64,000 nucleotides of DNA from Patescibacteria group bacterium (GCA_028716045.1 JAQUQO010000001.1:64942-128941), one strand, 5' to 3'; shown: positions 25,907 to 64,000, numbered from the stretch's first letter. Notes: generated from the letters alone by a model not told the origin. Translations and numbers: made by a program.

Positions 25907-25944
25907 AAATATAACATACAATTTATTATTTAATTTTAATTCTT

Positions 25945-26649: not shown

Positions 26650-26685
26650 TAAAATGTTTAAACTTTAGGCAGTGAGGCAAGTTTT

Positions 26686-36978: not shown

Positions 36979-37863
36979 TTGATTTTATATATGATGCCCG
37001 AAGATTACGAAAAAAATATTGATTTACCGGGCGATTTTAATACATACGGAGCAGAGGGGGGCGAAGGAGAGAAGGAAGAAAGGCGCGTCAAGCCCGCTTC
37101 AAAAGGAAAGGCAAATTTTATCTTTGCCGCGGTTTTTATTTTAGCCATAACCGGAGTAGCGCTCGGTTTTTCCAATTATTATAACAATATAAAGGGGCCG
37201 TTCGTTTTTAAGGGTTCTGAAAACGAGGAAGCCAGCGGTTCGGTGAATAAAGAAGCCCAGGATAGTTTGGATTTGCGCAATAAAGATACGGATAGCGACG
37301 GCTTAAATGATTATGATGAATTATATGTTTACAACACCTCCCCATATTTAGACGATTCGGACTCTGATAATTATAAAGACAAGGAAGAGATTGATAAGGG
37401 CTATGACCCAAACTGCCCGGCCGGGCGAGTTTGTATTTCGTCACCGTCTGAAAGTTCAACCGCCACGGAAGAAACAGCTACTAATTTAACAGCGGCGGAA
37501 GAAGAAATTTTAAATCAAGGGCAAAAACTTCTTTCCGGGTCTTTATCCCTTGATGAATTAAGAGCGCTTCTTAAGGAAATGGGAATGAGCGCGGCGCAGG
37601 TTGATAGTTTAAGTGACGAAGATTTAAAAAAACTTTACGATAAGACCTTGCAGGAAGTGCAAAAGCAGGTTGTGGCCGGGGAAAGTTCCTCGGGCACAGC
37701 AGAAACGCAGAATGGCGAGAGCACCAAACTCCCAGCGTCAGATTCCATCACTCCGGAGCAGATTAGGCAGCTCTTAATCGCCGGCGGGATGAAAGAAAGC
37801 GACCTTGAGGGAATAAGTGACGAGGAGCTAATTAAACTTTATAAGGAAGCGACGGAAGAATAA
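36979..37863 (+). CDS. TM protein with TSP3-like acidic repeats and C-terminal tandem helical repeat
   Basis: A TM helix, DTDSDGLNDYDE / DDSDSDNYKDKEE repeats, and two copies of about 38 aa of (E)LRxLLxxxGMxxxxxxxxSDE(E/D)LxKLYxxxxEE (res 188-226 and 257-294). It is the fourth member of the 25.2-27.7 kb family. Confidence 0.6.
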   Translation: MILYMMPEDYEKNIDLPGDFNTYGAEGGEGEKEERRVKPASKGKANFIFAAVFILAITGVALGFSNYYNNIKGPFVFKGSENEEASGSVNKEAQDSLDLRNKDTDSDGLNDYDELYVYNTSPYLDDSDSDNYKDKEEIDKGYDPNCPAGRVCISSPSESSTATEETATNLTAAEEEILNQGQKLLSGSLSLDELRALLKEMGMSAAQVDSLSDEDLKKLYDKTLQEVQKQVVAGESSSGTAETQNGESTKLPASDSITPEQIRQLLIAGGMKESDLEGISDEELIKLYKEATEE

Positions 37864-45910: not shown

Positions 45911-48661
45911 ATGTTTAAACAACATAAAAAACTCATTCTATCCTTAATCTTGTCCGCGACGATAATTATCGCGGGCGGTTTTCTTATCGGAAATTTTGTT
46001 CACGCGGAAGACCCAGCGGCCACCATAAAAGACAGCTCCACTGCCACGATTCTTCGACTCACCCTCGGTTACATAGTGGAACTTTTTATTTTTCTTGGCG
46101 GTCAGCTTTTAGTTTTACTTCTGAAAGTTTTAAAACTTTTGGCCGGTTATAATGATTTTATTCGCGCCGAACCGGTCCAGTTGGGTTGGGTGGTTATCCG
46201 CGATTTAAGCAACATGTTTTTTATTCTCATCTTGCTGGTTATCGCTTTTGCCACCATCCTGCGGGTGGAATCTTATCAATATAAGAAACTTCTGCCTCGC
46301 CTTCTCATCATGGCGATACTCATAAATTTTTCCAAAACCATCTGCGGATTGTTTATAGATTTTGGGCAGGTGATAATGCTCACTTTTGTCAATGGGTTCG
46401 CGGCGGCTACGGATGTCAATCTTACTGTTGGCTTAGGTATTGATAAAATATTATCCCTGCCGAAAGATTCCTCGGCCACGGTTAATGCTTTAACTATAGT
46501 GGCGGCGTATCTCTTAGCTTTGATTTATATTGTAGTCACTGTTATAACCGTCGCCATTATTTGCTTTACGCTGGCCTATCGCATCGTGATGCTTTGGATT
46601 TTAGTGGTGCTTTCCCCTCTGACTTTTTTATTAAGCGCTTTTCCGCAGGGGCAGAAATTCGCTTCGCAATGGTGGGATGAATTTTCCAAGACCATTGTCA
46701 TCGGTCCGATTTTAGCTTTCTTTTTATGGCTATCTTTGGCGGCCATGCAACCAGCGGCGGATAATCCCAGAAACTCCAGTTTAACCAGGACATTAACCAC
46801 CGAGCAAGAAGAGGATGTGGGAGAAACGGCAACTGGGGACACCGTTTCGCGAGCCATTAGCCAAGCTGACGACTTGAGTGTTTTTGCCACCTTTATTGTG
46901 GGTATCGCTTTAATGTGGGGTGGTATTTATATGTCGCAGAGAATCGGAGGTGAAGTTGGTAGTTTTGCCTCTGGTAAGGCCAGGCAATGGTCGGTGGGTG
47001 CGGCTAGAGGAGCAGCAGGCGCGGCTAAATGGGCCGGCGGTAAATTATGGGGTGGGACGAAAGTTGGAGCAGGCGCACTTGATAGATTGCAAGGGGGCGT
47101 AACGGGCATACAATTCTCTAAAATTCCCGAAAGAATTAAAGCCGGGTTTGCTACCAAAAAAGAAATGGAGGAAAAAGAGATTGCCAAGAAGGCCTTGGCA
47201 ATTCAGCGCCGGGGAGCCGGAGCTGGTTGGTTGCCGGCGTATATGGCGTTTGCCACTCCGGACAAAGCTATTATGGAATATGGTGGTGTGAAGGGAAGAT
47301 TAAAGGCGGCTAATCAAACTCGCCGCATTTTACCGGGGTTGGAGAGTTATAGACAGAAAAAACAGGAAGCGGATATTAAGAGAGCTGATTATAAAAAATT
47401 AGAGGGCGAAAATAAAACGTTGACTGATAAAATAGAAAAACAAGCTGATTTAGAAAAAGAACAGAAGATTTCAGCTGAGAATTTTGGTAGGTTCGGTACT
47501 TCCACCGTGATGTTAGACAAAGTAGGAGACAGAGATATTATTGAAAAATTAGAAGAAGAAAGGGAGCGATTAAGGATACAAGCCGGTGTTCCCGGCGCAA
47601 GCGGAAAAGATAAAAAAGAATTTGAGTATTTAGACGCGATTTTAAGCACTCCCGAAGTTAAACTTTCCGCTTCGGAGTTTAATAAATATGTCGGCAATAA
47701 AAATCCTCTCGCTTTTGAAAATGAAAGGAGTAGGGTGAAAAAAGAAAAAGACAAAGCAGAGGAAAGGTTAAACAGATTTATCGCTAATAATCCCGGATTC
47801 ACAAGAGGAGAAGCAGAAAATACAATAAAAACTAACCAAAACGTAATAGGAAATATTAAAGAAGATGTGAGAAGGATAGAATCGGAATATCTGCCTAATA
47901 TTCCCAAGCATTTAGTGTTTGATGTGGAGGCCAAAAAGGCCGAAGCCGAAGCGCTTAAAAATATTCCGTCCACCGCTGGCTTTCCGGATTTAATGAGAGC
48001 TCTGAAAAAGGCTTTGGCGGATGGTGATGCCTCTACCGCCAACGTTATTTCTAAAAAATTGAGTGAAAATGGGCAGATGGGCGATATGTTGAAAGAAATG
48101 GGTAAAACAGAAGATATAGCTGGTTTTAAGGAGTTTGTTGATAAGGAGCTTTTAAAGGTTAATAAGGACGATAAAAATGCTGCTTATAGTGTTGGCAGTG
48201 AAATGAGCTTGTATGCGGAAAAATCCGGTGACGCCGTTTATGGCGGCATATTTAGAGCAGATCCATCAACCGGTAAGGTTGATGCCGTCAGTGATAATGA
48301 GGCGGTTGATATTATAGCCAAAAGAATATCCAGTAAAGACGCTTCCCAAGCCGTTAAAGTTAAAATATCTTCTTATGTTAAAACGGATATTTTAGGGAAA
48401 AAGAGTTTAACTCCTTTGGGAGCGACAGTGGTTTCTACTTTTGCTCCCGATTTTGAAAAAATGATTTCTAAAGGAACTTTTCCTCCGGCTTTACAAAAAG
48501 CCTTGAGAGATGTTAAGGGCAGTATTGAAAAAATTGTTGGAGTTGGCACATTAACTAAAGAATTGGCCGATAAAATAACCGCGGTGGGTTATGCCACCGG
48601 AGAAGAAGAAATACCGCCTAAAGCTGCGGATTTAATCGCAAAATTGACGGGAGGCCCGTAA
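45911..48661 (+). CDS. Polytopic membrane protein, VirB6/TrbL-like, with about 600-aa charged coiled-coil C-terminal extension
   Basis: A signal or first TM helix, then about 6 TM helices within res 40-290. The remainder is Lys/Glu-rich and predicted helical. Its position at the head of the PrgI-VirB4 block fits VirB6-like, but the topology is only eyeballed. Confidence 0.5.
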   Translation: MFKQHKKLILSLILSATIIIAGGFLIGNFVHAEDPAATIKDSSTATILRLTLGYIVELFIFLGGQLLVLLLKVLKLLAGYNDFIRAEPVQLGWVVIRDLSNMFFILILLVIAFATILRVESYQYKKLLPRLLIMAILINFSKTICGLFIDFGQVIMLTFVNGFAAATDVNLTVGLGIDKILSLPKDSSATVNALTIVAAYLLALIYIVVTVITVAIICFTLAYRIVMLWILVVLSPLTFLLSAFPQGQKFASQWWDEFSKTIVIGPILAFFLWLSLAAMQPAADNPRNSSLTRTLTTEQEEDVGETATGDTVSRAISQADDLSVFATFIVGIALMWGGIYMSQRIGGEVGSFASGKARQWSVGAARGAAGAAKWAGGKLWGGTKVGAGALDRLQGGVTGIQFSKIPERIKAGFATKKEMEEKEIAKKALAIQRRGAGAGWLPAYMAFATPDKAIMEYGGVKGRLKAANQTRRILPGLESYRQKKQEADIKRADYKKLEGENKTLTDKIEKQADLEKEQKISAENFGRFGTSTVMLDKVGDRDIIEKLEEERERLRIQAGVPGASGKDKKEFEYLDAILSTPEVKLSASEFNKYVGNKNPLAFENERSRVKKEKDKAEERLNRFIANNPGFTRGEAENTIKTNQNVIGNIKEDVRRIESEYLPNIPKHLVFDVEAKKAEAEALKNIPSTAGFPDLMRALKKALADGDASTANVISKKLSENGQMGDMLKEMGKTEDIAGFKEFVDKELLKVNKDDKNAAYSVGSEMSLYAEKSGDAVYGGIFRADPSTGKVDAVSDNEAVDIIAKRISSKDASQAVKVKISSYVKTDILGKKSLTPLGATVVSTFAPDFEKMISKGTFPPALQKALRDVKGSIEKIVGVGTLTKELADKITAVGYATGEEEIPPKAADLIAKLTGGP

Positions 48662-48665
48662 ATTT

Positions 48666-49901
48666 ATGTGGGATAAAATAAACAACCAAAAAGTTTTAGA
48701 TGATTTTAAAAGGAGCTTGGATAATGATATTTTGGAATACGATTTGAATGACGCCAAAATTCTTTATACTTCTCTCCGTGATATTTTAGTTAAAGAAAAT
48801 ATTAATGAAACGGGAGGGGCGATGGCCGAGGAATATTATAAATTAATGCGGCAGGCCGGGTTTGTGTCCCTTGCTCTTTTGGAATTTGATGATGCTAAAC
48901 AATTGTTTGCCGAAGGTCTGCCGACTATGTTAGAGTTGAGCGAATTTGACGTTTTGAATGAATTAAAGAAATTTTTTATCTACCGTTTTCCGATACTGGC
49001 CGACCGATTGCTCGCCAAAAACGACTTGCAAAAAATTATAGAGGAGAATAACAAAAGAATAGCGAACGCCGCCGGAGCGGCTATCGGAGAAAAACAACTT
49101 TTTATTGTCAGCGATTGGATTAAAAATTATTTGGCTTATATTAATCAGGCCGAACCGGAAATTTTAAAATTGCAGGAATATCTGGCGCGGTCGGAGGCGA
49201 TGCAAAAAACCAGCGAAGAAGAAAAAAATAAGATAGGCCTTTTGTTGAAGATTTATGATTATTTGCGAATGGCGCAGTTCAAACCGTTTTTGTTAGATGA
49301 GGAATTAACAATAGTTGAGGACGGAGAAACATATACTGTCACCGAGGGGCGGGCGGAAAAGGTGGACCCCAATATAAAAAAATTGATGGCGGATATCAGG
49401 GAAATTTTGGAAAAGGCGCGCGCTCCGGAAGAAGTGGCGACGGCTTACAGCGCGGTCGGTTGGCAAAGGATTTCTAAACCACAAATTTTAAAGAAATATA
49501 AAACTCTGGAAGCGGCGGCAGATAATCTATTTAAAAAAATCGCCGGTAATTTATTGGGGAGCGCGGACAAAGACGAAGCGCTATCCATTTTATATTATTT
49601 AGCAGAGGAAAATAAATTGATGACGTTTTTAAAATCACCGGCCAATTTTAGCGGGCTTAAGGCGTTATTTGCCAAATCAAAAAAATTAACCGACGCCCAA
49701 AAAAACGCCAACATTCCGGAGCTCACGATTTTTTTACAGGCCTTTTTGCGTTATATTTTTGAAGAGTTGCTGGAGATGAGTGTTAATGAAGCGGCTCGCG
49801 AAGGCCAGCGCTTGGCCAACGCACTTAAAAAATCCGGTGGAGCCGATTATTTTGATATTTCCTATTTTGATTTAAATAAAGGGCAATTTGTCTGGAAATA
49901 A
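48666..49901 (+). CDS. Hypothetical soluble protein in T4SS-like module
   Basis: The 411-aa ORF has no TM helix. It is tightly packed, 4 nt after the VirB6-like stop. Confidence 0.5.
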   Translation: MWDKINNQKVLDDFKRSLDNDILEYDLNDAKILYTSLRDILVKENINETGGAMAEEYYKLMRQAGFVSLALLEFDDAKQLFAEGLPTMLELSEFDVLNELKKFFIYRFPILADRLLAKNDLQKIIEENNKRIANAAGAAIGEKQLFIVSDWIKNYLAYINQAEPEILKLQEYLARSEAMQKTSEEEKNKIGLLLKIYDYLRMAQFKPFLLDEELTIVEDGETYTVTEGRAEKVDPNIKKLMADIREILEKARAPEEVATAYSAVGWQRISKPQILKKYKTLEAAADNLFKKIAGNLLGSADKDEALSILYYLAEENKLMTFLKSPANFSGLKALFAKSKKLTDAQKNANIPELTIFLQAFLRYIFEELLEMSVNEAAREGQRLANALKKSGGADYFDISYFDLNKGQFVWK

Positions 49902-51321
49902 TTCTATGGCCGTTGGCAATAAAAAAAATAATAATCATTCGGCAGTTAATACGTTTTCTGATGATGAGGTTTTAGTAAAAGGGGGTGACGGAAAATTTTA
50001 TATTTTAAGAGGAGCAGAATTAGCGCCCTACGAAGCGGCGAGAGGAGAGAGGCCGGTTTTGGATTACAAAAGAATCGCCGAAGAAATAATAGATAAGAGT
50101 GGGAGTGTGGCACTCACGCCGGTTAGGCGGGACCAGCTTTTTAATGTTATCGTTTCCGGCCTAAAGGGCGTGCGCGACAGTTTAGAAATAAAAAATATCC
50201 TTGTAAAACCAATTGGCGTCGGCGGATTAGAATTAAATGAAGACAAGACAAAATTAATTTTGGATTTAATAAAACTCGCCTTGGAAGATAAATTAGGAGC
50301 TGGAACGTCCCGCGGAGAAAAACAGGAAGGGAAAATCGCCTCGGTGGTCTCCGTTACTCCGGCCAGCGATATAAAAAGTTTAGAGAAGCTGGTTAATGAG
50401 GTGGTGGGGATTATCAAAAAGGATTATCCCAAAGAGCTAGAGATGAGATTAAGAGGAATAATATTGACATATCTTAAAGATATTAGAGATAAAAGAGAAA
50501 CGCGTGAAACACTAGAGAGGCAAATAGCCAAGGGCGGAATGTCGTTTGAAAAGGGGCGGGCGGAAAAGCTGGTTAATTTTATTGACGATTTAGAAAAACG
50601 TCGTCAAGCGGGGGAGATGGGGCTGAAAAAAGAATTTCCATCACCTAAAAAAGAATTCCTGGCTGTTCCCGTGAAAGAAGCGTTGGTCGGTGAGTCAAGC
50701 AACAAGGCGGATGTTTCTCAATTTGTGGCTAAAGAAAGGGAGGCCTTTAAGGAGTCAGTTATTTTGAAAGATAAATATTTAGCGCCGCCCCCGCTGGCCA
50801 TTGTTAAGAAGGAAGAAGGCGCTGAGCTTCCCTCAAGGGCATTGGAAAAAGAACTGTCAAAGCCGGGGTTACAAAAATTTGTTCCACCGCTTCGCCCCAA
50901 AATAACGCCCCAGCCGCCGCCAGCCTCCGCACCTTTAAAGCAGACCTTGGTTGTAGAAAGAAAACCGCAGATTCAGGATATAAAATATAAACCGCGGCTG
51001 GTCGGTCCCATAGAAGAACTTCGAACTTTGACTCTCCGCGATTTTCGCAAGCTTTCAGAAGACCCGAAAATCGCCACAGAGAAAATTCAAAATAAGATTA
51101 ACCTTTTAGAAGAAGAATCCTTTGCCAAAAGGATGGAAGGAGCGAGGGCTTGGCAGAAAAGTCCTCTCAATCAGGAATATTTGAAGGTGGGGCAGAAGAG
51201 CTTGCTGGAGGGCAAATCCGTTGAACAAATAATCGCGGAAAATTTAAGTAAATCAAAAGAAAGCTTAAATAAAGCGGAATTTAATGCTATAATGGGATTG
51301 AATAAGAGAATCAGATTATAA
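49888..51321 (+). CDS. Hypothetical protein in T4SS-like module (Pro-rich central segment)
   Basis: The 477-aa ORF overlaps the upstream gene by 14 nt. The central PPLRPKITPQPPPASAPL motif suggests an envelope-spanning or peptidoglycan-interacting role. Confidence 0.5.
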   Translation: MSGNNSMAVGNKKNNNHSAVNTFSDDEVLVKGGDGKFYILRGAELAPYEAARGERPVLDYKRIAEEIIDKSGSVALTPVRRDQLFNVIVSGLKGVRDSLEIKNILVKPIGVGGLELNEDKTKLILDLIKLALEDKLGAGTSRGEKQEGKIASVVSVTPASDIKSLEKLVNEVVGIIKKDYPKELEMRLRGIILTYLKDIRDKRETRETLERQIAKGGMSFEKGRAEKLVNFIDDLEKRRQAGEMGLKKEFPSPKKEFLAVPVKEALVGESSNKADVSQFVAKEREAFKESVILKDKYLAPPPLAIVKKEEGAELPSRALEKELSKPGLQKFVPPLRPKITPQPPPASAPLKQTLVVERKPQIQDIKYKPRLVGPIEELRTLTLRDFRKLSEDPKIATEKIQNKINLLEEESFAKRMEGARAWQKSPLNQEYLKVGQKSLLEGKSVEQIIAENLSKSKESLNKAEFNAIMGLNKRIRL

Positions 51322-51329
51322 TTTTTAAT

Positions 51330-51767
51330 TTGTCTATCATGCGCCAGTTTGTTGTTCCACAATTTATTGACGTTGAGGATAAAATAATCGGCCCGGTTAC
51401 CGTCAGACAGTTTATTATTATGCTGGTGGACGCGGGGTTGATATTTTTGTCGTATAAACTTTTTGATTTTGCCCTTTTCGTGATAGTTGGATTAATTTTG
51501 TTTGGTATTGGAGGAACGATAGCCTTCCTTAAAGTTAATGGCCAGCCGTTTCATTTTTTTATGTTGAACTTAATCCAAACCTACCGCCGGCCTTGGCTGA
51601 AGATTTGGAACAAGGAACTGGAAAATTGGGAAATAAAGGAAAAACTAAAAATAACGGAAGTGAAATTACCGGAAAAACCCAAAGTTAAACCGAAAATTTC
51701 CGCCTCGCGGCTGGCCGAGCTTAGCTTGATTGTCAATACTGGCGGCGTTTATGAAGGGCAAGATTAA
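51330..51767 (+). CDS. PrgI/VirB3-like small two-TM T4SS protein
   Basis: A 145-aa product with two adjacent TM helices (res about 28-80), then KVNGQPFHFFMLNLIQTYRRPWLKIW. It sits directly upstream of VirB4, matching the VirB3/PrgI position and topology. Confidence 0.55.
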   Translation: MSIMRQFVVPQFIDVEDKIIGPVTVRQFIIMLVDAGLIFLSYKLFDFALFVIVGLILFGIGGTIAFLKVNGQPFHFFMLNLIQTYRRPWLKIWNKELENWEIKEKLKITEVKLPEKPKVKPKISASRLAELSLIVNTGGVYEGQD

Positions 51768-51807
51768 TTATCAAAATTTTGGATTCCAAATATAAAATAA
51801 AACTGCC

Positions 51808-52482
51808 ATGCCGGAAAAAACTCCTAAAAAATTAGCCCCATCAACCCAAAAGTTTCTTGATATTTCCGAAATCAGAGATGATTGCGTTATTTTAAAGGAT
51901 GGAACTTTGCGAGCTGTTTTGTTGGCCTCCTCTATCAATTTTGCCCTAAAATCCGAAGATGAGCAGAATGCTTTGATTTCCGCTTATATGAGTTTTCTAA
52001 ATTCTTTTGATTTCCCCCTGCAAATCGTGATTCAGTCACGCAAGCTGGATATTGAGGGCTATTTGGAAAGATTGAAAGATACGGAAAAAACTCAAACCAA
52101 CGAATTATTAAAAATACAAATTGCCGACTATCGCGAATTTATAGCCGAGTTAGTAGAAATCGGAGACATTATGAGCAAGAGTTTTTATGTGGTTATACCT
52201 TATAACCCTCTTACTGATAAACGCAAAGGATTTTGGACAAGAGCGCAGGAACTCTTTACTCCGGCGATAATTTTAAGATTGGGAGAAGATAAATTTCAAA
52301 AAAGAAGACATTATTTGATACAAAGGGTTGGTCATATCCAGTCGGGCCTTGAGAGTATTGGCCTTCATTCGCAATTATTAGATACCCAAAGTTTAATCGA
52401 GCTTTATTATAATGCTTATAATCCGGCAACCTCCAAAGTCCAGAAATTAGTTGAGATAAGCAAGCTTCAAGTTGAGGATTAA
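51808..52482 (+). CDS. T4SS-associated protein; possible detached N-terminal segment of VirB4
   Basis: A 224-aa product, 22 nt upstream of VirB4 in a different frame. Its pattern FLDISEIRDDCVILKDGTLRAVLLASSINFALKSEDEQNALISAYMSFLNSFDFPLQIVIQS resembles the extreme N-terminal region of TrbE/VirB4 proteins, as recalled rather than aligned. Confidence 0.45.
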   Translation: MPEKTPKKLAPSTQKFLDISEIRDDCVILKDGTLRAVLLASSINFALKSEDEQNALISAYMSFLNSFDFPLQIVIQSRKLDIEGYLERLKDTEKTQTNELLKIQIADYREFIAELVEIGDIMSKSFYVVIPYNPLTDKRKGFWTRAQELFTPAIILRLGEDKFQKRRHYLIQRVGHIQSGLESIGLHSQLLDTQSLIELYYNAYNPATSKVQKLVEISKLQVED

Positions 52483-52504
52483 GTGCTTAATATAAAATTT
52501 TAAT

Positions 52505-54361
52505 ATGGCTTTTGCCTTGTTTAAAAAGAAAGAATCTCCCGAAAAGCCAAGCGGTCAAGCGGCGGAAGAAGCGGCCAAGAGTGAAAGAATTCTGTTGGAA
52601 GAGGAAAAAATTTACCGCCGTGGGATTATTTCGGTCCGCGATATCATCGCTCCGGAATCAATGAAAGTGGAGCCGACTTTTATAGTCTTAGGTGACAAAT
52701 TCGTCCGCACCATATTTATAATGACTTATCCGAGGTATATCAATATCGGCTGGTTTGCCCCCATTATTAATCTTAATGTGACTTTGGATGTGGCGATGTA
52801 TTTTTATCCGGTTAAATCGGAAATTATTTTGAAACAGTTGAAAAAGAAAGTCGGGGCTTTGGAAGCGCAGATTATTTCCGACTCCGAAAAGGGCGCTCCC
52901 CGCGACCCCATCAGAGAAACGGCTTTGCGGGACATAGAAAAATTGCGCGATGACCTTACCCAAGGGGTGGAGCATTTTTTTCAATTTGCTCTTTACATCA
53001 CTATTTATGCTGATAGTAAAGAAGCCCTGGATAATATCTCTGAGGATGTAGAATCATTATTTGGAGGAAAACTTATTTATTCCAAAAAAGTTTTATATCA
53101 GGCGGAGCAAGGATTTAATTCCACGCTTCCTTTGGCCAACGATGAGTTGATGATTACCTTTAATATGAACACTTCTCCTTGCGCCTCTTCTTTCCCTTTT
53201 ATTTCTTCGGAATTAACGTCGGACAACGGCATTTTGTACGGTATCAACAGGCACAATAACAGCTTGATTTTATTTGACCGATTTTCTTTACCCAATGCCA
53301 ACGCCGTGGTTTTTGCCACTTCCGGCGCCGGCAAGAGCTACGCCATCAAATTGGAAGTCCTGCGCAGTATGATGATGGGGACAGACGTGTTGGTGATTGA
53401 CCCGGAGAGGGAATATAAGCATCTGGCGGAGGCGGTAGGCGGGGCTTATATTGATATCTCTCTTGGCTCTGACAGCAAAATTAACCCCTTTGATTTGCCG
53501 CGGGCGATGGGGGAAGACACTACCGCAGAAGATATTATCAGAAGCGCCGTCATCACTATCAAGGGTTTGGTACGCCTGATGCTTGGCAAACTTTCGCCGC
53601 AGGAAGATACGATTATTGACCAAGCGTTGCTCCAGACCTACGCCAAAAAAGATATTACGCCGGAAACCGATTTATCGCAGGGGGTGGAAGTCCCGCTAAT
53701 GAAAGATTTTGAAAATATTCTGGAAGGCATGGAAGGCGGAGGGGATTTAGTAATGCGTTTAAGAAAGTATACCGAGGGAACTTTCGCCGGATTGTTCAAT
53801 CATCCGACTAATGTGGATATCAAAAATCAGTTAGTGGTTTTCAGTGTTAGGGATTTAGAAGATGAGTTAAGGCCCTTGGCTATTTACAACATCGTCAATT
53901 TTATCTGGAATGTTGTCCGGAGCGAGCGCAAAAAGAGGATTTTAGTAGTTGATGAGGCCTGGTGGCTGATGCAGAATGAAGATTCAGCCAAGTTTATCTT
54001 TGCTCTTGTGAAACGTTGCCGCAAATATTACATGGGAGTCACCACGATTACGCAGGATGTCAGTGATTTTTTGACTTCTGATTATGGTAAAGCCATTGTG
54101 ACTAATTCCTCTTTACAACTTTTATTAAAGCAATCGCCGGCAGCCATTGATTTAGTGCAAAAAACATTTCTTTTAACCGAAGGCGAGAAATACCTGCTTT
54201 TGGAATGCGGCGTCGGCGAGGGAATATTTTTCGCCGGCTCCAAGCATGCGGCCATAAAAATAGTCGCCTCTTATACCGAAGACCAAATCGTTACCACTAA
54301 TCCCCAGCAATTAATAGAAATAGAGGAGGCGAAAAAAGAGTTTGCCAGAAAAAATAAATAG
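52505..54361 (+). CDS. VirB4/TrbE-family T4SS ATPase
   Basis: The N-region LGDKFVRTIFIMTYPRYINIGW, Walker A VFATSGAGKSYAIK, Walker B RILVVDEAWWLM, and the ITQDVSDF C-motif. Confidence 0.85.
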   Translation: MAFALFKKKESPEKPSGQAAEEAAKSERILLEEEKIYRRGIISVRDIIAPESMKVEPTFIVLGDKFVRTIFIMTYPRYINIGWFAPIINLNVTLDVAMYFYPVKSEIILKQLKKKVGALEAQIISDSEKGAPRDPIRETALRDIEKLRDDLTQGVEHFFQFALYITIYADSKEALDNISEDVESLFGGKLIYSKKVLYQAEQGFNSTLPLANDELMITFNMNTSPCASSFPFISSELTSDNGILYGINRHNNSLILFDRFSLPNANAVVFATSGAGKSYAIKLEVLRSMMMGTDVLVIDPEREYKHLAEAVGGAYIDISLGSDSKINPFDLPRAMGEDTTAEDIIRSAVITIKGLVRLMLGKLSPQEDTIIDQALLQTYAKKDITPETDLSQGVEVPLMKDFENILEGMEGGGDLVMRLRKYTEGTFAGLFNHPTNVDIKNQLVVFSVRDLEDELRPLAIYNIVNFIWNVVRSERKKRILVVDEAWWLMQNEDSAKFIFALVKRCRKYYMGVTTITQDVSDFLTSDYGKAIVTNSSLQLLLKQSPAAIDLVQKTFLLTEGEKYLLLECGVGEGIFFAGSKHAAIKIVASYTEDQIVTTNPQQLIEIEEAKKEFARKNK

Positions 54362-54974
54362 ACCCAGTTATAAAGAAATTATGAATAAAAAAATAAAAAT
54401 AATTTTAATAGCCGCCGCTATTATTTTGGTCTTAATTATACTTTGGATTTTATTTTTTAATAAAGGAGAAAAGCCTGCTTTAATTACCCTCCCTCCCGGC
54501 GGAGAAACATCGGGTATTATTGAAGAAGTCGGACCAACTCCCGCCGTGGAAATACCAAAGCAAGGAATCGTAATTGTTGAGGAGGAGCGCCCCGACGTCA
54601 GCAATCTCGTAAAACTGGCTTCTGCTTTTGCCGAAAGATTCGGCAGCTATTCTAATCAGAGCGATTTTAATAATATCAGGGATCTCCAGATTTTTATGAC
54701 CGACTCCATGGAGGAGTGGTCAGAATCTTTTATTGAAGATAGCCGGGTCAAGAGCGGCGATAGCAGTATTTACTACGGAATTACCACTAAAGCTTTGAAA
54801 GCGGAACTTTCTGAATACGACGAAGCCGGCGGCACGGCCGAGATTTTGGTAAAAACCCAGCGCCGCGAGGCAATGGGCGACACCGGCAATGCCAAGATTT
54901 ATTATCAAGATATTTTAATTAAACTGAAAAAAGAGGGTGATATTTGGAAAATTAACGGCGCCTGGTGGCAGTAA
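54342..54974 (+). CDS. Bitopic membrane protein, VirB8-like topology (speculative)
   Basis: An N-terminal TM helix (KIKIILIAAAIILVLIILWILFF), then an about 150-aa beta-rich ectodomain ending ...ILVKTQRREAMGDTGNAKIYYQDILIKLKKEGDIWKINGAWWQ, which looks NTF2-like. It overlaps the VirB4 stop by 20 nt. Confidence 0.35.
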   Translation: MPEKINRPSYKEIMNKKIKIILIAAAIILVLIILWILFFNKGEKPALITLPPGGETSGIIEEVGPTPAVEIPKQGIVIVEEERPDVSNLVKLASAFAERFGSYSNQSDFNNIRDLQIFMTDSMEEWSESFIEDSRVKSGDSSIYYGITTKALKAELSEYDEAGGTAEILVKTQRREAMGDTGNAKIYYQDILIKLKKEGDIWKINGAWWQ

Positions 54975-54983
54975 TTTGGAAAT

Positions 54984-55730
54984 ATGAACAGCACAGGAGG
55001 GTGGCGTGAAAAAATTTTTGAAGTTAGAAAATTTTTTTTGGATTTGATATTCCCCGTTGAGTGTCTCGGTTGCAAGAGAGAAGGCCAATGGCTTTGTGAC
55101 GATTGTTTTAGAAAAATAAAGCCGATTCTTTCAAATTTTGCCGCTTGCCCTTTTTGCGGAAAGGTGGCGGAGAGTGAAATACCGGGAGAATTATGCGAAA
55201 GGCATAATTTTTATCTGGACGGGATTTGGAGCGCTTGCGATTACAAAGAAAAATTAATAGAAAGAGCTATTTGTTTGTTGAAATATAATTTTGTTGAAGA
55301 TCTAAGCGGCGATTTGGCTAAACTATTAACAAATCATTTAGAGAGATTGCGCGGTTTGGTTGATTTAAATAATTTTTTTAATTATATTGTGCCGGTTCCG
55401 CTTCATTTAAAAAGACGCGCAGAGAGAGGTTTTAATCAGTCAGAACTATTAGCGCGAGAAGTTGCCGATTTTTTATCTCTTCCTTTTCGCAGTGATGTTC
55501 TAAAAAGGGTAAAATATACCCCTCCGCAAGTGTCCCTTGATGGCGAGAAGAGAAGGGTTAATTTAAAAGACGCTTTTTATTGCGACCCGTCAATTAATTT
55601 ACATAATAAAAAGATTTTGCTGATTGATGACGTCTTTACCACTGGCAGCACTTTTAACGAATGCGCGAGAGTTCTTAAAAAATCAGGCGCGGCCTTGGTG
55701 TGGGGGCTAACCATTGCCCGTAGCGGTTAA
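54984..55730 (+). CDS. comFC: ComF family protein (ComFC phosphoribosyltransferase-type competence protein)
   Basis: An N-terminal 4-Cys zinc finger (CLGCKREGQWLCDDC...CPFCGK) and the C-terminal PRTase motif ILLIDDVFTTGST. Confidence 0.8.
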   Translation: MNSTGGWREKIFEVRKFFLDLIFPVECLGCKREGQWLCDDCFRKIKPILSNFAACPFCGKVAESEIPGELCERHNFYLDGIWSACDYKEKLIERAICLLKYNFVEDLSGDLAKLLTNHLERLRGLVDLNNFFNYIVPVPLHLKRRAERGFNQSELLAREVADFLSLPFRSDVLKRVKYTPPQVSLDGEKRRVNLKDAFYCDPSINLHNKKILLIDDVFTTGSTFNECARVLKKSGAALVWGLTIARSG

Positions 55731-55775
55731 GGGTTTACATTTATTATAAATTATGCTAAGGTTATAATACTTTTT

Positions 55776-55939
55776 GGAGAGGTGGCCGAGTTGGCTGTCC
55801 GGTCATCCGACCGGATTGAAAAAGGCGGCACTTGCCCGGTTGAATAACTGGGCACTGCTAACGTGTTGAGGGGTAAAACCTTCCGCGGGTTCGTCCCGTC
55901 ATCCGACGGGACGCCACGGGTTTATCCCGTGGCGAATCC
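55776..55939 (+). pseudogene. Interrupted, 3'-truncated tRNA-Ser(GCU)-like copy with three hairpin insertions
   Basis: It is identical to the intact tRNA-Ser at 56226 over 89 exon-like nt. It carries a 26-nt insert in the D-loop, a 22-nt insert in the anticodon stem and a 41-nt insert in the T-loop, each forming perfect hairpins (TCCGGTC..GACCGGA; TCCCGTC..GACGGGA; CGCCACGGG..CCCGTGGCG). The acceptor 3' strand is absent. Confidence 0.5.
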
Positions 55940-55962
55940 TTTTAGGAATTTGATTTTAGTGT

Positions 55963-56220
55963 ATGTTTTATGTATATTTGTTGTTATTAATTAACGGGGA
56001 TATCTACAAAGGATTTAGCGGCGACTTAAAAAGGAGATTAGAAGAGCACGACAGGGGAAAGGTAGGAGCGACTAGAAATTTTAGACCCGCAAAACTAATT
56101 GGTTATGAAGCATATCTACTAAAAAGCGATGCCGTAAGAAGAGAGGCGTTTTTAAAAACCACGGAGGGCAGAAGATTGCTAAAACAACAGTACAGAGATA
56201 TTATTGATAAAGGTAAATAA
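55963..56220 (+). CDS. GIY-YIG nuclease-domain protein (85 aa)
   Basis: FYVYLLLLINGDIYKGFSGDLKRRLEEHDRG is a GIY...YIG motif with the conserved Arg, Glu (EHD) and Asn. It lies between the two tRNA-Ser copies. Confidence 0.75.
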   Translation: MFYVYLLLLINGDIYKGFSGDLKRRLEEHDRGKVGATRNFRPAKLIGYEAYLLKSDAVRREAFLKTTEGRRLLKQQYRDIIDKGK

Positions 56221-56225
56221 AATTT

Positions 56226-56313
56226 GGAGAGGTGGCCGAGTTGGCTGAAGGCGGCACACTGCTAACGTGTTGAGGGGTAAAACCTTCCGCGGGTTCGAAT
56301 CCCGCCCTCTCCG
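56226..56313 (+). tRNA. tRNA-Ser (anticodon GCU)
   Basis: GGAGAGG/CCTCTCC acceptor, anticodon loop CTGCTAA, a long variable arm GAGGGGTAAAACCTTCC, and T arm GCGGG-TTCGAAT-CCCGC. Confidence 0.85.
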
Positions 56314-56469
56314 CAACGGAATTTAAGGGAGTGGAGGAGAGAGCCCCGCAACTGCTTGCGGGGCGTGGTGGGTTCGAAGACCGCAGCCATGTCCGAGGAG
56401 ATTTTCGGCGACGAGGACGGCGAGGGGCGGTCTGCGACCGAGGAGGCGGAAGCCGACGAGAGTTGTAGA

Positions 56470-56490
56470 CGAATCCCGCCCTCTCCGCCA
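56470..56490 (+). repeat. Direct repeat: 3'-terminal 21 nt of tRNA-Ser(GCU) plus CCA
   Basis: CGAATCCCGCCCTCTCCGCCA repeats the T-loop and acceptor 3' end found at 56297-56313, 155 nt downstream of the intact gene. It looks like an att-type repeat or a remnant of a second copy. Confidence 0.5.
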
Positions 56491-56664: not shown

Positions 56665-56743
56665 CCTTAGGGCGGACGAATCCTCCCGCCTCCGCCCGAG
56701 ATTGTTGAGGCGGAGTAAAAAAAGTTATTTTTAATTTAAAAAT

Positions 56744-58089: not shown

Positions 58090-60228
58090 ATGTTTGTTCT
58101 TGCCACCCCAGTATCCCATTTGACCCGCGTTGGCAGGGTTACAGCTAAGCAATTAGAGAAGATAGGCATTGAGACCGTTGAGGATCTCATTTTTTATTAT
58201 CCTTTTCGCTATGACGATTTAAGCCGGGTTTTGACCATAGATAAGTTATTCCCCGGGGTTGAGGCGACCGTTCGGGGGCGGGTAGAGCTCATAAAAAATC
58301 GCCGCAGTCCGGTGAAAAAGAAAATCCTCACCGAAGCCATTGTTTCCGATGACACCGGCTCCCTCAAGGTTGTTTGGTTTAATCAGCCGTTTTTAACTAA
58401 AAATATCAGGCCCGGTGATGTGATTTATTTGGCTGGCAAGGCGAACTTTGATTATCGGGAGATAGAATTCGTCAATCCGGTATATGAAATAGTAAGAAGA
58501 GGAGCGCCCTTGAATACCGCGGCTATTGTGCCGGTTTATCATCTGACTGGCAGGATAACCCAAAAGCAATTGCGTTTTTTAATTAAACATTCATTGGACT
58601 TCATCGGCGAAGTGCCGGAATGGTTGCCTAAAGATATTATTAAAAGACGCGATTTTATTTCTATCACCGAGGCCCTAAGGCAAATTCATTTTCCCGCGTC
58701 TTGGGCGGAAGTGGAAGAAGCGGAGTCCAGATTAAAGTTTGACGAACTATTTTTATTTCAGCTTTTGGCCCAAAGGATAAAACATTTATTAAAAAAGAGT
58801 CGGGCTATCCCGATTGAATTTAAGAAAAGACAAACCGTAAAATTTGTAAATAGCTTGCCGTTTAAGCTCACTAATGACCAACGTTTGGCCGCTTGGGAAA
58901 TTATCAAGGATTTAGAGGGCGATAGGCCGATGAACCGATTACTTGAAGGTGATGTGGGTTCCGGCAAAACCGTGGTGGCTGCCATGGCGATGCTCAATGT
59001 CGTTTTAAATAAACACCAAGCGGCTTTGATGGCCGCCACGGACATTTTGGCGCGACAGCATTATAAAACCATTTGTAAATTGTTGGCCGATTTTAATATA
59101 AAAATCGGGCTGGTGACGAGAAGCGAGAAGAAGATAAATTATAAATTAGGAGCTAGAAATCCAGTAGGGGGTAAAAAAAATTTTGATTCAAGATTCGTAA
59201 CTCATAATTCGGATATAATTATCGGCACGCACGCTTTAATTTCCGCCAAAGGCGCCGTGCCCGCCGACAGGCACGGACCCGCCTCTGGCGGGCAGGATAA
59301 AATTGAGTTTAAGAATTTAGCCCTTACCATTATTGACGAACAACATCGTTTCGGCGTGGAACAAAGAAAGTTTTTAAAAGCCAATAGCGGCCAATCCGGA
59401 ATTACTCCTCATTTTCTATCTATGACCGCCACGCCCATACCGCGCTCTTTGGCCCTTGCTCTATATGGCGATTTGGATTTATCTATCATTAAAGAAATGC
59501 CCAAAGGAAGGAAGAAGATATTAACCAAAATTGTTGACTCCAAAAATCGAAGCGGGGCTTACGAGTTTATCAGAGAAAAAGTAAAAGAGGGGAGGCAGGT
59601 TTTTGTCATTTGCCCGTTGATTAATCCGTCTGATAAATTAGGCGTAAAATCAGTAGCTGAAGAATATCAAAAATTAAGGAAAGATATTTTTCCAGAATTT
59701 AAAATAGAAGCTCTGCACGGCAAATTACCAAGCGCGGCCAAAGAGAAAATTATGACCGAGTTTTCGGAAAATAAAATAAATGTTTTAGTTTCCACTTCGG
59801 TGGTGGAAGTCGGTATTGATGTTCCCAACGCCACGATTATGATGATTGAAGGAGCGGAAAGATTCGGGCTGGCCCAACTTCATCAGTTTCGCGGGCGCGT
59901 GGGCAGAGGAGAACACCAATCTTATTGTTTGCTTTTCAGTGACAATCTTGTTGGGCAAACTAAAGAAAGATTGCGCGCCTTAGTCAGTAGTAACGACGGC
60001 TTTGCTTTGGCTGAAAAGGATTTGGCTTTAAGGGGCCCAGGGGAGGTTTATGGCACGCAACAGTCGGGGATTATTGATTTAAAATTAGCCAAATTAACCG
60101 ATTTTTTAATTATTAAACAAGCCAAAGAAGAAGCGGAAAAGATTATTGCCGACGACCCGGAATTTAAAAAGTACGCGGAGATAAAAGCTCGGCTAAGATT
60201 AGCGGAAGAAGCGGTTCATTTGGAATAG
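58090..60228 (+). CDS. recG: ATP-dependent DNA helicase RecG
   Basis: A wedge/OB N-domain (…FYYPFRYDD…), helicase motifs GDVGSGKT and DEQHRFG, and a C-terminal TRG motif region. Confidence 0.9.
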   Translation: MFVLATPVSHLTRVGRVTAKQLEKIGIETVEDLIFYYPFRYDDLSRVLTIDKLFPGVEATVRGRVELIKNRRSPVKKKILTEAIVSDDTGSLKVVWFNQPFLTKNIRPGDVIYLAGKANFDYREIEFVNPVYEIVRRGAPLNTAAIVPVYHLTGRITQKQLRFLIKHSLDFIGEVPEWLPKDIIKRRDFISITEALRQIHFPASWAEVEEAESRLKFDELFLFQLLAQRIKHLLKKSRAIPIEFKKRQTVKFVNSLPFKLTNDQRLAAWEIIKDLEGDRPMNRLLEGDVGSGKTVVAAMAMLNVVLNKHQAALMAATDILARQHYKTICKLLADFNIKIGLVTRSEKKINYKLGARNPVGGKKNFDSRFVTHNSDIIIGTHALISAKGAVPADRHGPASGGQDKIEFKNLALTIIDEQHRFGVEQRKFLKANSGQSGITPHFLSMTATPIPRSLALALYGDLDLSIIKEMPKGRKKILTKIVDSKNRSGAYEFIREKVKEGRQVFVICPLINPSDKLGVKSVAEEYQKLRKDIFPEFKIEALHGKLPSAAKEKIMTEFSENKINVLVSTSVVEVGIDVPNATIMMIEGAERFGLAQLHQFRGRVGRGEHQSYCLLFSDNLVGQTKERLRALVSSNDGFALAEKDLALRGPGEVYGTQQSGIIDLKLAKLTDFLIIKQAKEEAEKIIADDPEFKKYAEIKARLRLAEEAVHLE

Positions 60229-61558: not shown

Positions 61559-62899
61559 TTATAACAATTCCAAAGCTTGAAACAGTGAAGTGGCTTCTAT
61601 CAGTTTCAATTTAGTCGTGATTTTCTGGCTTAATTTAGGTAAAATGACCGTTTTAAATCCCAATTTTTCTATCTCCTTTAATCGTCTCTCCAGTTGATTT
61701 ATGCCGCGTATTTCCCCACCAAGGCCTATTTCCCCTAAAATGACCGTATTCGCGTCTAAACCCTTATTTTTGGCCGCTGAAGCAATGGCCAGGGCCACGG
61801 CCAGGTCCGCAGCCGGTTCCTGGATTTTTAGCCCGCCGGCGACGTTCAGATAGACATCGGAAGCATTAAGATTTATTTTAGCCCTTTGAGTTAATACGGC
61901 AATTAAAACCTGCAGGCGGTTAGGGTTAAAGCCCTCGGATTTTCTTTGGGGATAGCCGAAGTTAGTTCTATTTACCAGCGCCTGTATTTCTACAAGGAGC
62001 GGACGCGAACCCTCTAAAATACAGGTGATTGCTGAACCCGGTGACGGAGTATTTTTATTTTGTAAAAAGATTAAAGATGGATTTTTTACTTCTTCCATAC
62101 CACCGCCCGTCATTTCAAAAACGCCGACTTCGCCGGCGGAGCCAAAGCGATTTTTCACCGTGCGAAGCAGACGATAAGATTGATAACGCTCGCCTTCCAG
62201 ATAAATTACGGTATCAACCAAGTGTTCCAAAGTTTTTGGTCCGGCTACCAATCCTTCCTTCGTCACGTGTCCGATGATGAATACAGGGATATTATTTTTT
62301 TTGGCGGTTTCCAGAAGTCTGACCGTGGAAGCCCGGACTTGGCTGATGCTTCCGGCCTCGCTCGGAATATCCGGAGAGTAAATCGTTTGGATGGAATCAA
62401 TAATCGCGAGAATGGGCTTTTCTTTTTCCAGAGTGGCCACGATGGCGTTAACATCTGTTTCTCCTAAAAATGAAATATTTTTTCCGGAGAGTTTTAGCCG
62501 CTCCAAACGCAGTTTAATTTGTTCTCCAGATTCCTCACCGGAAACATAAAGCACGTTTCTGGTGTCGGACACCTTCGCGGCGATTTGGAGAATCAATGTT
62601 GATTTGCCGATTCCCGGTTCCCCGCCCAGAAGAGTTAAACTGCCCGGAACAATCCCTCCGCCGACGACTGCGTCAAATTCTTCCAAGCTGGTTTTTATTC
62701 TGGGGAATTGCAGGTGGTTTATTTCGGAAAATTTTACAGTTTTGCCGGCCACCGCCAGGGATTTTTTTTCTTCCTTAGTCGTAGTCGTCGCCACTTGTTC
62801 CAGCGTGCCCCAAGCCCCGCATTCCAAACACCGCCCGCCCCATTTTGGAGTTTGCGCGCCGCATTTGGAACATTCATATATTAAAAAGGATTTTGGCAT
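61559..62899 (-). CDS. radA: DNA repair protein RadA/Sms
   Basis: An N-terminal C4 zinc finger (CSKCGAQTPKWGGRCLECGAW), the RecA-like Walker A GGEPGIGKSTL, the KNRFG motif and a Lon-like C-terminal domain. Confidence 0.92.
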   Translation of the reverse strand: MPKSFLIYECSKCGAQTPKWGGRCLECGAWGTLEQVATTTTKEEKKSLAVAGKTVKFSEINHLQFPRIKTSLEEFDAVVGGGIVPGSLTLLGGEPGIGKSTLILQIAAKVSDTRNVLYVSGEESGEQIKLRLERLKLSGKNISFLGETDVNAIVATLEKEKPILAIIDSIQTIYSPDIPSEAGSISQVRASTVRLLETAKKNNIPVFIIGHVTKEGLVAGPKTLEHLVDTVIYLEGERYQSYRLLRTVKNRFGSAGEVGVFEMTGGGMEEVKNPSLIFLQNKNTPSPGSAITCILEGSRPLLVEIQALVNRTNFGYPQRKSEGFNPNRLQVLIAVLTQRAKINLNASDVYLNVAGGLKIQEPAADLAVALAIASAAKNKGLDANTVILGEIGLGGEIRGINQLERRLKEIEKLGFKTVILPKLSQKITTKLKLIEATSLFQALELL

Positions 62900-62905
62900 A
62901 AAATT

Positions 62906-64000
62906 TTATTGCTGTTTTCCGCCAAGCTGTTGGCAGAAATTATTATAGTATTTGCTGGCGCTTCTGGCGTATTCTGCCGCTTGTTCGTTTTTGCCTTTGA
63001 CGCCGCTTGCTCCGCCGTTATAGCCGGCGAAAGTCAGGGCAATATCTCCTCCGGACATAGGAAGGATAGTTTGAGATATTAATTTTCCCGAATATTCCAT
63101 GGAGTTCGTTTTGCCGTTTGTTCCGTGGAAGAAATCTACGCAAGATGAGGAAGCCTGCGCGCAGTGGCCGCAAGGCGGGATTTGGCAAGTAAAACCATAG
63201 TCGCCGTTTCCTTGACCAATGGACGTTTTTTCCTCTGCGGAAGCGTTCTTTTGTATTGTTTTAGTGGAGCAACTATAACCAAGGCCATCCAAAGTGTCGG
63301 GCATTAATTGGGTTACGCCTACTTCTCCGCAGGGGCCCCTTTTGGCTTGGGCGTTACCGCGATTTTCTTGTTGGAAAATCGCGGCCATGATTAGCGGGTC
63401 CACTGCCGCTCTCTTGGCCGCAGTGAGAACATCGGCATCAATAACTTGCGCTAATTTGGTTTCATCATATCCTTTGCACGGTAAAACACTGCCCTTTAAT
63501 TCTTTGGCGCTTTCAATGCTTTCTTTAACGGCAGCTTCCAAATAACGAATACTTAACGGTTTTAATTTTACCAGCCCCGGGTTTATTTCATAGAGAATCA
63601 GGTATGACCCCAGCGCTAAAAATAATCCGATGACTGCTCCTTTGATATAATCTTTCGCCTGATTAACCCTGTCCGGGCTTCCTCCGGCCGTCAGCCAAAT
63701 TGTACCTCCGATGGCAATCATAATAATTGCCACAATACCGACGATGCCTAGGGCGTAATTGTAGATAGCGGCGATGTATTCGGCTATCCACGGGATTTGC
63801 AGGTATTTTTTCCCGCCGATTTCTAATTCGGTAGGACCGGAAAATTTACTAAAATCGCCAATGGGTATTTGCAGGTCGGGCAGAACAATTTTCGGCGCGG
63901 GTTCGCCGGAAGGCGGCGGAGTTTGTGGGGCCGCAGGTTTAATACATTTATATTTGTTGGAAGTATAGGGTTCGCCGCCTACAATCCGCACATCTGTTCC
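62906..64000 (-). CDS. Lytic transglycosylase (SLT domain, VirB1-like) fused to N-terminal VirB2/TrbC-type pilin-like domain; 5' end may lie outside window
   Basis: IAAIYNYALGIVGIVAIIMIAIGGTIWLTAGGSPDRVNQAKDYIKGAVIGLFLALGSYLIL matches the helix-loop-helix domain of the 13090 and 14872 products. The C-terminal half has the SLT catalytic motif IFQQENRG...GEVGVTQLMP and ends GYNGGASG. The first in-window start is GTG at 63991, and the frame stays open to the window edge. Confidence 0.7.
   Translation of the reverse strand, partial: GTDVRIVGGEPYTSNKYKCIKPAAPQTPPPSGEPAPKIVLPDLQIPIGDFSKFSGPTELEIGGKKYLQIPWIAEYIAAIYNYALGIVGIVAIIMIAIGGTIWLTAGGSPDRVNQAKDYIKGAVIGLFLALGSYLILYEINPGLVKLKPLSIRYLEAAVKESIESAKELKGSVLPCKGYDETKLAQVIDADVLTAAKRAAVDPLIMAAIFQQENRGNAQAKRGPCGEVGVTQLMPDTLDGLGYSCSTKTIQKNASAEEKTSIGQGNGDYGFTCQIPPCGHCAQASSSCVDFFHGTNGKTNSMEYSGKLISQTILPMSGGDIALTFAGYNGGASGVKGKNEQAAEYARSASKYYNNFCQQLGGKQQ

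Follow-up and report, generated by a model that had tools for sequence, protein, structure and literature searches.

Gene content of the locus

We analyzed a 64-kb window of genomic DNA from a Patescibacteria group bacterium (GCA_028716045.1, JAQUQO010000001.1), with all positions counted within this window, and focused on a compact gene block at 45911-54974 that encodes components of a type IV secretion system (T4SS). The block is a resident, non-conjugative T4SS cluster of the kind found across ultra-small Patescibacteria, here in the class ABY1. It consists of seven open reading frames (ORFs), all on the plus strand, with gaps between successive ORFs of 4, -14, 8, 40, 22 and -20 nt (Table 1). 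An initial annotation, made from the sequence alone, had described tightly packed co-directional genes at exactly these coordinates, flanked by a giant secreted protein and comFC, and this description is confirmed. The same annotation counted eight genes in the block. Only seven ORFs are present, which is also the number that it named, and comFC would make the eighth.

In a public assembly of the same organism, eight genes are called, as virB4 is broken in two there by a homopolymer that differs by 1 nt. The homopolymer is the A6 run at 53083-53089 within virB4, which is A5 in that assembly (GCA_028711565.1, JAQTRY010000001.1); the frameshifted virB4 is annotated there as a pair of genes encoding 214 and 398 amino acids (aa), and this site is the sole difference over 19.6 kb between the two sequences. 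The difference stems either from an error in sequencing the homopolymer or from slippage at the population level, in a gene that is otherwise highly conserved. Public annotation also uses other start codons for two of the genes, ATG 54381 for the VirB8-like gene (197 aa) and ATG 49906 for the gene of the 477-aa protein (471 aa).

Each sizeable ORF in the window was compared with Pfam profiles, and the proteins of the T4SS block with NCBIfam profiles as well. For comparison we used at least 80 related loci, from a scan of one genome per species, in which VirB4 is 71-78% identical. These relatives belong to the Falkowbacteria, Magasanikbacteria, Komeilibacteria, Buchananbacteria and Veblenbacteria, all within the class ABY1. 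The count of comFC as the next gene refers to the 60 informative loci with at least 1.5 kb of downstream sequence.

Table 1. Features of the T4SS block and of other genes and elements in the 64-kb window.
Feature	Position	Strand	Evidence
VirB6/TrbL-like polytopic membrane protein, 916 aa	45911-48661	+	weak TrbL match, topology, position
Soluble accessory protein, 411 aa, of a fast-evolving lineage-specific family	48666-49901	+	family and position
Soluble accessory protein, 477 aa (471 aa from ATG 49906)	49888-51321	+	
PrgI/VirB3-like small membrane protein, 145 aa	51330-51767	+	Pfam PrgI PF12666
TrsD-type protein, free-standing VirB4 N-terminal domain, 224 aa	51808-52482	+	NCBIfam
VirB4 ATPase, 618 aa	52505-54361	+	NCBIfam conju_CD1110, Walker motifs
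VirB8-like bitopic protein, 210 aa from TTG 54342	54342-54974	+	transmembrane helix, disordered linker, NTF2-like domain
comFC	54984-55730	+	NCBIfam GntX/ComF E=1e-34; Pfam DZR_2 and Pribosyltran
Terminator-like hairpin	55912-55934	+	consensus scan
Giant secreted CBM_4_9 protein, 2635 aa	37935-45842	+	Pfam CBM_4_9 E=1.5e-15
Surface protein, 584 aa: signal peptide, VirB2-like pilin hairpin, immunoglobulin-like Big_5	13090-14844	+	Pfam T4SS_pilin E=1.3e-9, Big_5 E=1.5e-13
Giant surface protein, 3443 aa: VirB2-like hairpin, then Big_5, Big_7, TIG, DUF4215	14872-25203	+	Pfam T4SS_pilin E=2e-6, residues 48-115
Fusion of pilin hairpin and SLT lytic transglycosylase (VirB1-like)	62906-63991	-	Pfam T4SS_pilin E=6.6e-11, SLT E=1.6e-6
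dprA	2925-4034	-	
recG	58090-60228		
radA	61559-62899	-	

VirB4 ATPase and its separate N-terminal domain

The 618-aa protein matches the NCBIfam model conju_CD1110 at E=1e-108 and 364.6 bits (cut-off 325) over profile positions 173-730 of 752, and the Pfam family P-loop_TraG at E=2.9e-27; AAA_10 and CagE_TrbE_VirB are also matched. It contains the Walker A motif ATSGAGKS and the Walker B motif ILVVDE. As judged from these profiles and motifs, the assignment as a bona fide VirB4 ATPase, already proposed in the initial annotation, is firm.

This protein is without the N-terminal ~170 residues of full-length VirB4. The 224-aa protein, previously described as similar to the N-terminal part of VirB4, matches the NCBIfam models VirB4_plasma (positions 102-233, E=7.8e-10) and TrsD/TraD (E=1.2e-7), both under the family cut-offs, and CD1110 (positions 5-83, E=8.8e-4). 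A precomputed match to the Pfam family TraC-like PF26593 is given in its public record. Since the 618-aa protein spans positions 292-890 of the VirB4_plasma profile and thereby complements the 224-aa protein, VirB4 is divided between two proteins, an N-domain protein of the TrsD type and an ATPase body. The TrsD gene lies directly 5' of virB4 in 78 of the 80 loci, with 46-64% identity.

Across the same loci, the identity of VirB4 (71-78%) exceeds that of RecG (39-57%) and ComFC (28-47%), and the lineages compared are of candidate-phylum level. The VirB4 ATPase is under unusually strong constraint.

Membrane components

The 145-aa protein matches Pfam PrgI PF12666 at E=7.2e-7 and 30.1 bits, above the cut-off of 27, and its hydropathy profile shows a hydrophobic hairpin at residues 22-71, in agreement with the PrgI/VirB3-like protein with two transmembrane segments of the initial annotation. 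A prgI gene occupies the same position in 75 of the 80 loci.

The first gene of the block encodes a 916-aa protein with a multi-pass membrane region inside residues 6-342, as determined from hydropathy, and a poorly conserved tail of ~570 aa of which 32% are charged residues (K, R, E or D). Its similarity to Pfam TrbL PF04610 (E=0.0064, profile positions 32-191 of 215) falls under the cut-off, the match to NCBIfam CD3337/EF1877 has an E-value of 0.0023, and a precomputed TrbL_3 match is graded "weak" in the public record. Among 36 members of the VirB6-like family, three match TrbL, the best at 5e-4. When the family was compared by sequence profile with all PDB chains, only coiled-coil and low-complexity matches were obtained, and these came from the tail; tblastn of the membrane domain against 72,556 plasmids gave no match. 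The transmembrane core of the family is conserved, with W93, R97, D98, N101 and N139 among its invariant residues. A VirB6-like gene was found 5' of virB4 in 44 of the 80 loci, a count that depends on the length of flanking sequence available at each locus. The polytopic region and long tail of the initial annotation are thus evident, its VirB6/TrbL identity is weak by sequence, and the multi-pass topology and the position in the operon would fit a VirB6 role.

The last protein of the block had been proposed as a VirB8-like bitopic protein. A transmembrane helix precedes an NTF2-like domain, and at the level of the fold there is support for VirB8, although a sequence-profile search against all PDB chains found nothing. 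The gene is directly 3' of virB4 in 78 of the 80 loci.

Two soluble accessory families

Two proteins had been listed as soluble proteins of unknown identity, and indeed neither the 411-aa nor the 477-aa protein has a transmembrane segment or a match in Pfam, NCBIfam or PDB sequences. For the family of the 411-aa protein, a threshold of E<=1e-3 gave 468 cluster representatives, most of them full-length and 22-30% identical; identities in the family alignment are 12-23%. The family is fast-evolving yet widespread. In an iterative search, its members were found directly after the VirB6-like gene in ~30 related loci.

The 477-aa family is kept in 69 of the 80 loci. In the 477-aa protein, a small N-terminal beta part is followed by two helical modules, a proline-rich disordered linker and a C-terminal helical domain that is conserved. 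The helical module occurs twice, with a consensus of roughly L-K-D-I-R-D..ET...L......GGL, and the 411-aa protein contains a module weakly similar to it. Alignment of the two families with hhalign gave a weak match (36% on that program's probability scale), which is a lead only. In some relatives, both families are fused in a single ORF of 590-980 aa. Both proteins look like cytoplasmic partners of the machine that are specific to the lineage.

Evidence against a mobile element

No relaxase, coupling protein, VirB11, integrase or plasmid replication protein was identified among the Pfam-scanned ORFs of the 64-kb window, in agreement with the initial annotation, which had suggested that the block is a resident machine and not a mobile element; this reading is well supported. 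The GC content of the block (0.415) is similar to that of its flanks (0.415 and 0.427) and of the whole window (0.430), GC skew is positive throughout, and no att-like direct repeats bracket the block. Furthermore, the gene order VirB6-like, 411-aa family, 477-aa family, PrgI, TrsD, VirB4 and VirB8-like is kept across 80 species-level ABY1 genomes, where the block adjoins the same housekeeping genes, comFC, radA and recG. Together, these features, among them the conserved order and the higher conservation of VirB4 than of RecG, are the signature of a core function that is inherited vertically.

If the block were an integrative conjugative element (ICE), ordinary or in decay, that had inserted near tRNA genes, this would account for the homology of the components to conjugation genes of ICEs and plasmids in Firmicutes and Tenericutes. 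It would also agree with the presence of three tRNA genes and partial tRNA-Ser duplications 0.8-2.5 kb downstream. However, the tRNA fragments are local duplications at a GIY-YIG ORF and do not surround the cluster. Together with the lack of mobility genes in the 64 kb, the flank-like GC content and the synteny shared by 80 species, this leaves the ICE explanation with hardly any probability, and we rejected it.

Between comFC and the GIY-YIG ORF (55963-56220) there is a second, degenerate copy of tRNA-Ser(gct); the repeat parts are at 55766-55950, 56296-56314, 56470-56488 and 56677-56695. Three hairpin-like insertions interrupt this copy, and its 3' acceptor strand is missing. An exact repeat of the 19-nt 3' end of tRNA-Ser is found 174 nt downstream of the intact gene, and a 79% copy comes after tRNA-Ser(tga). 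These fragments resemble a scar left by a small mobile element or by homing-endonuclease activity.

Pilin-hairpin proteins and other surface proteins

Three proteins of the window contain a T4SS_pilin domain, one of them together with an SLT domain, so that both a VirB2-like pilin and a VirB1-like hydrolase are represented. The hairpins of the 584-aa and 3443-aa proteins align closely, and the signal peptide and hairpin are nearly the same in both; that of the 584-aa protein also matches the NCBIfam model of the Mbov_0395 pilin-like conjugal transfer protein (E=1.6e-6). The pilin-SLT gene is located ~8 kb downstream of the T4SS block, and its N-terminus is cut by the end of the window (the full public record has 420 aa). 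A local hidden Markov model (HMM) of the pilin hairpin revealed neither a free small pilin nor further hairpin copies in the window.

Similar genes are present in the relatives. ORFs of 315-594 aa with a pilin domain were found no more than 10 kb downstream of virB4 in 18 of the 80 loci. Homologs of the pilin-SLT protein are encoded at most 10 kb from virB4 in 17-18 loci, and in ~10 they directly follow the VirB8-like gene. Some of the relatives' pilin-domain ORFs carry SLT, GDSL-lipase or M23 domains. Pilin hairpins that head giant proteins are not described in PMC10633639, PMC12102498 or PMC12857230.

The giant pilin-headed protein is followed by three consecutive genes for small membrane-anchored proteins (25217-27672). 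The first two contain bacterial TSP3 calcium-binding repeats according to Pfam, and the third has TSP3-like DTD-rich motifs recognized by eye. Similar DTDSDG motifs occur in a 294-aa membrane protein (36979-37863) encoded ahead of the 2635-aa CBM protein. This raises the question of whether small TSP3/DTD-type membrane proteins are recurring partners of giant surface proteins.

The 2635-aa CBM protein has a signal peptide and an N-terminal hydrophobic segment and no pilin domain. Its gene ends 68 nt 5' of the VirB6-like gene. In 14 of 39 loci, the VirB6-like gene is directly preceded by a large or open-ended ORF in the same direction, and homologs of the CBM protein occur in nine of 80. It is possible that this protein is an adhesin or a partner of the machine; its membership in the cluster is uncertain.

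Another unusual protein is encoded at 4414-6183. This 589-aa protein corresponds to the N-terminal half of a PilB/GspE ATPase, comprising the cyclic di-GMP-binding MshEN domain and the N1 domain, and has two FHA domains in place of the ATPase domain. Such a protein might regulate the ATPases of type IV pili or of secretion systems.

comFC and the DNA-repair neighborhood

A gap of 9 nt separates comFC from the VirB8-like gene. Among terminator-like hairpins of the plus strand, the best, with a 9-bp stem of which eight pairs are G-C and a T-rich tail, is found ~180 nt past comFC, inside the degenerate tRNA-Ser copy, and may function as a terminator. Because this hairpin comes after comFC and not before it, the transcription unit probably ends with comFC, which would be co-transcribed with the block as a neighbor and need not belong to the machine.

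Among the informative loci, comFC is the immediate next gene in 26 of 60, and most of the others have radA or a pilin-hairpin gene in its place. In 32 loci, recG lies no farther than 10 kb away. Three arrangements can be distinguished. In the first, comFC is usually followed by recG, with MPG, radA and the pilin-SLT gene on the opposite strand. In the second, radA and MPG come first, then recG and a gene designated u166 on the opposite strand. In the third, pilin-domain genes directly follow the VirB8-like gene. Our window shows the first arrangement, with the order comFC, GIY-YIG, two tRNA-Ser genes, u166, tRNA-Arg, a methyltransferase and recG, then MPG, radA and pilin-SLT on the minus strand. 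A single inversion of the u166-recG-MPG-radA block relates the first and second arrangements. The DNA-repair and competence neighbors can therefore reflect one ancestral arrangement, not repeated selection, and we dropped the idea of a repeated, independent linkage of comFC and radA to the T4SS. As an aside, dprA, comFC, recG and radA all share the 64 kb with the T4SS genes, and the comFC/recG/radA part of this neighborhood is conserved across ABY1.

Probable co-transcription of comFC leaves room for a link to DNA uptake. In such a scheme, the machine would import DNA from the host or the environment, like the ComB or Ced systems, and hand it to ComFC, DprA, RadA and RecG. The short distance to comFC with no terminator in between, the frequent adjacency of comFC and recG among relatives, and the presence of dprA and radA in the window are all consistent with it. 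A phylum survey likewise reports this association in ABY1 and suggests functional coordination (PMC12102498). There is also a weak, partial similarity between VirB4 and CedB (E=1.6e-12), but it is limited to the shared P-loop, and adjacency can be explained by one ancestral order and one inversion as described above. ComFC normally partners ComEC/ComFA at the cytoplasmic face, and this process is independent of a T4SS. In Southlakia epibionticum, moreover, deletion of comEC ends transformation and leaves the cells viable, whereas the T4SS is essential (PMC12102498, PMC12857230), so the essential role in that organism is not ComEC-coupled uptake. Overall we regard a DNA-import machine as unlikely.

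Comparison with known systems

The cluster, the absence of DNA-transfer genes and the comF/recG/radA neighbors were already published between 2023 and 2025 (PMC10633639, PMC12102498, PMC12857230). Our finding is a correct rediscovery, and what it adds is incremental. Three features were not found in these papers: a VirB8 fold encoded at the same place in almost every ABY1 locus, two accessory families between virB6 and prgI, and pilin domains that head large fusions both here and near virB4 in ABY1 relatives.

In their survey of the phylum, Quinonero-Coronel et al. (2025) placed VirB4 in a distinct clade related to the mating-pair-formation type FATA (MPF-FATA), with TrsD as the commonest partner and with PrgI/VirB3, VirB6 and VirB2-like pilins also found (PMC12102498). 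Only ~50 VirB8 homologs were detected by HMM, nearly all in ABY1, relaxases were rare, and VirD4-like genes were mostly distant from virB4 in many Patescibacteria (PMC12102498). We regard the locus in our window as a member of this clade. It has VirB4, TrsD, PrgI/VirB3, a putative VirB6, VirB8 and VirB2-like domains, and is chromosomal, without a relaxase and with comF, recG and radA as neighbors. The differences are in detail. A VirB8-fold gene follows virB4 in 78 of 80 loci as compared with the ~50 of the survey, and the pilin domains of the window and its relatives sit in fusions of 315-3443 aa, not in small pilins.

The only experimentally probed relative is the system of Southlakia epibionticum ML1 (SEML1_0006-0019). 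Wang et al. (2023) reported that T4SS and pilin genes of this organism are essential for epibiotic growth, with the essentiality of the T4SS established by transposon sequencing (Tn-seq) in this one Saccharibacterium, and that its T4SS is akin to Gram-positive conjugative systems and without a recognizable coupling protein or relaxase (PMC10633639). Both loci are chromosomal and Gram-positive-like and encode VirB4, TrsD, PrgI, VirB6 (putative in our window) and pilin-like proteins, with no recognizable relaxase or coupling protein in the cluster. In contrast to our window, Southlakia belongs to the class Saccharimonadia, has an array of small VirB2-like pilins and carries peptidase and lysozyme genes after virB4. 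No structural VirB8 homolog was reported for it, whereas our window encodes a VirB8-fold protein as well as pilin-hydrolase and pilin-adhesin fusions, with comFC downstream.

Among MPF-FATA systems we considered pCF10 Prg, CTn2 CD1110, pGO1 Trs, pIP501 Tra and the mycoplasma ICE. VirB4 scores above the CD1110 cut-off and PrgI above the Pfam cut-off, pGO1 likewise has a TrsD protein, PrgL and TraM are similar to the VirB8-fold protein, and the putative extended VirB6 is like TcpH and the CD3337 type. The mycoplasma ICE has a counterpart here in the match of the pilin-like domain to Mbov_0395. These likenesses bear out the minimal, Gram-positive-like architecture that had been proposed for the block, which descends from monoderm conjugation machinery of the MPF-FATA type. 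Of the structural claims made in the initial annotation, all held when tested apart from VirB6, for which the sequence support is weak. Unlike those systems, the locus is devoid of a relaxase, a coupling protein, an oriT context, mobile-element features and a PrgB-type adhesin; it is vertically inherited beside housekeeping genes, and its VirB4 is always split from the N-domain.

VirB4-family machines that work without a relaxase are also known in Helicobacter pylori (ComB) and in archaea (Ced). ComB differs in that it belongs to a diderm and includes VirB7, VirB9 and VirB10, and the proteins CedA and CedB of the archaeal system are not homologous beyond the P-loop.

Proposed function

The genes of the block encode a cytoplasmic-membrane platform, with a VirB6-like channel protein, PrgI/VirB3, a VirB8-fold protein, a split VirB4 and two soluble partners. 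From the window alone, relaxase-driven conjugative export of DNA from this locus is unlikely, because no coupling protein or relaxase is found there. We infer that the function is assembly of a pilus or adhesin, or transport at the host interface.

In Agrobacterium, VirB4 extracts pilin from the membrane. By analogy, a VirB4 hexamer with its separate N-domain would dock on VirB3, VirB6 and VirB8 and use ATP to pull VirB2-like hairpin proteins out of the membrane. The extracted proteins could then build or load a surface structure. In this bacterium the hairpin substrates would be fusions to a lytic transglycosylase and to large proteins with immunoglobulin-like domains, not small pilins. The SLT fusion may open the cell wall for the machine, and the surface structure could act at the contact with the host cell, in adhesion, as a conduit for macromolecules, or both. 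A pilus-like conduit has been the subject of speculation in a 2025 review (PMC12857230). The surface-assembly, episymbiosis and DNA-uptake roles put forward in the initial annotation agree with proposals in the literature (PMC10633639, PMC12102498, PMC12857230), and they stay at the level of proposals here.

A related possibility is translocation of effectors or toxins into a host bacterium, as by the bacteria-killing T4SS of Xanthomonas or the 89K system of Streptococcus suis. Wang et al. suggested that the Southlakia system "may instead export proteins" (PMC10633639). This reading would be consistent with a window that has no DNA-processing partners and with a lineage in which hydrolase domains (SLT, M23, GDSL) are fused to pilin hairpins. 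Nevertheless, most effector translocators need a VirD4 coupling protein, of which there is none in the window. Ptl and Brucella VirB are known exceptions (PMC12102498). No candidate effectors with recognizable signals were found, and the hydrolase fusions could equally well be VirB1-like enzymes that open the wall for the machine. We therefore consider an effector translocator very unlikely.

Several points weigh against our view of the locus as a T4SS that acts at host contact. Its function is extrapolated from one Saccharibacterium with a different locus, which has free arrays of small pilins and peptidase and lysozyme genes after virB4. Treating the hairpin fusions as substrates of the machine draws on domain identity and on neighborhood in 18 of 80 loci. 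The VirB6 identity of the 916-aa protein is weak by sequence, no fold or function could be assigned to the 411-aa or the 477-aa protein, and a VirD4-like gene may be present elsewhere in the genome. With these points taken into account, we still hold the identity as a Patescibacteria T4SS, together with a general role at host contact, to be highly probable.

A more specific and rather unlikely possibility is that the VirB2-like hairpin of ABY1 is a portable module, which would let the VirB4 machine mount wall hydrolases and giant adhesins of up to 3443 aa on the cell surface. If this is true, the T4SS would be mainly an assembly platform for an organelle of host attachment and penetration, possibly coupled to DNA uptake through comFC.

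Our window does not contain a new kind of system; it provides a clean and complete ABY1 example. The VirB8 protein supported at the level of the fold, the two accessory proteins encoded within the operon and the pilin-hairpin fusions are leads for modeling the complex and its cargo. The T4SS of Patescibacteria is the first T4SS reported to be essential to its owner, and it offers a rare molecular handle on how a vast and mostly uncultured bacterial diversity lives on other cells.

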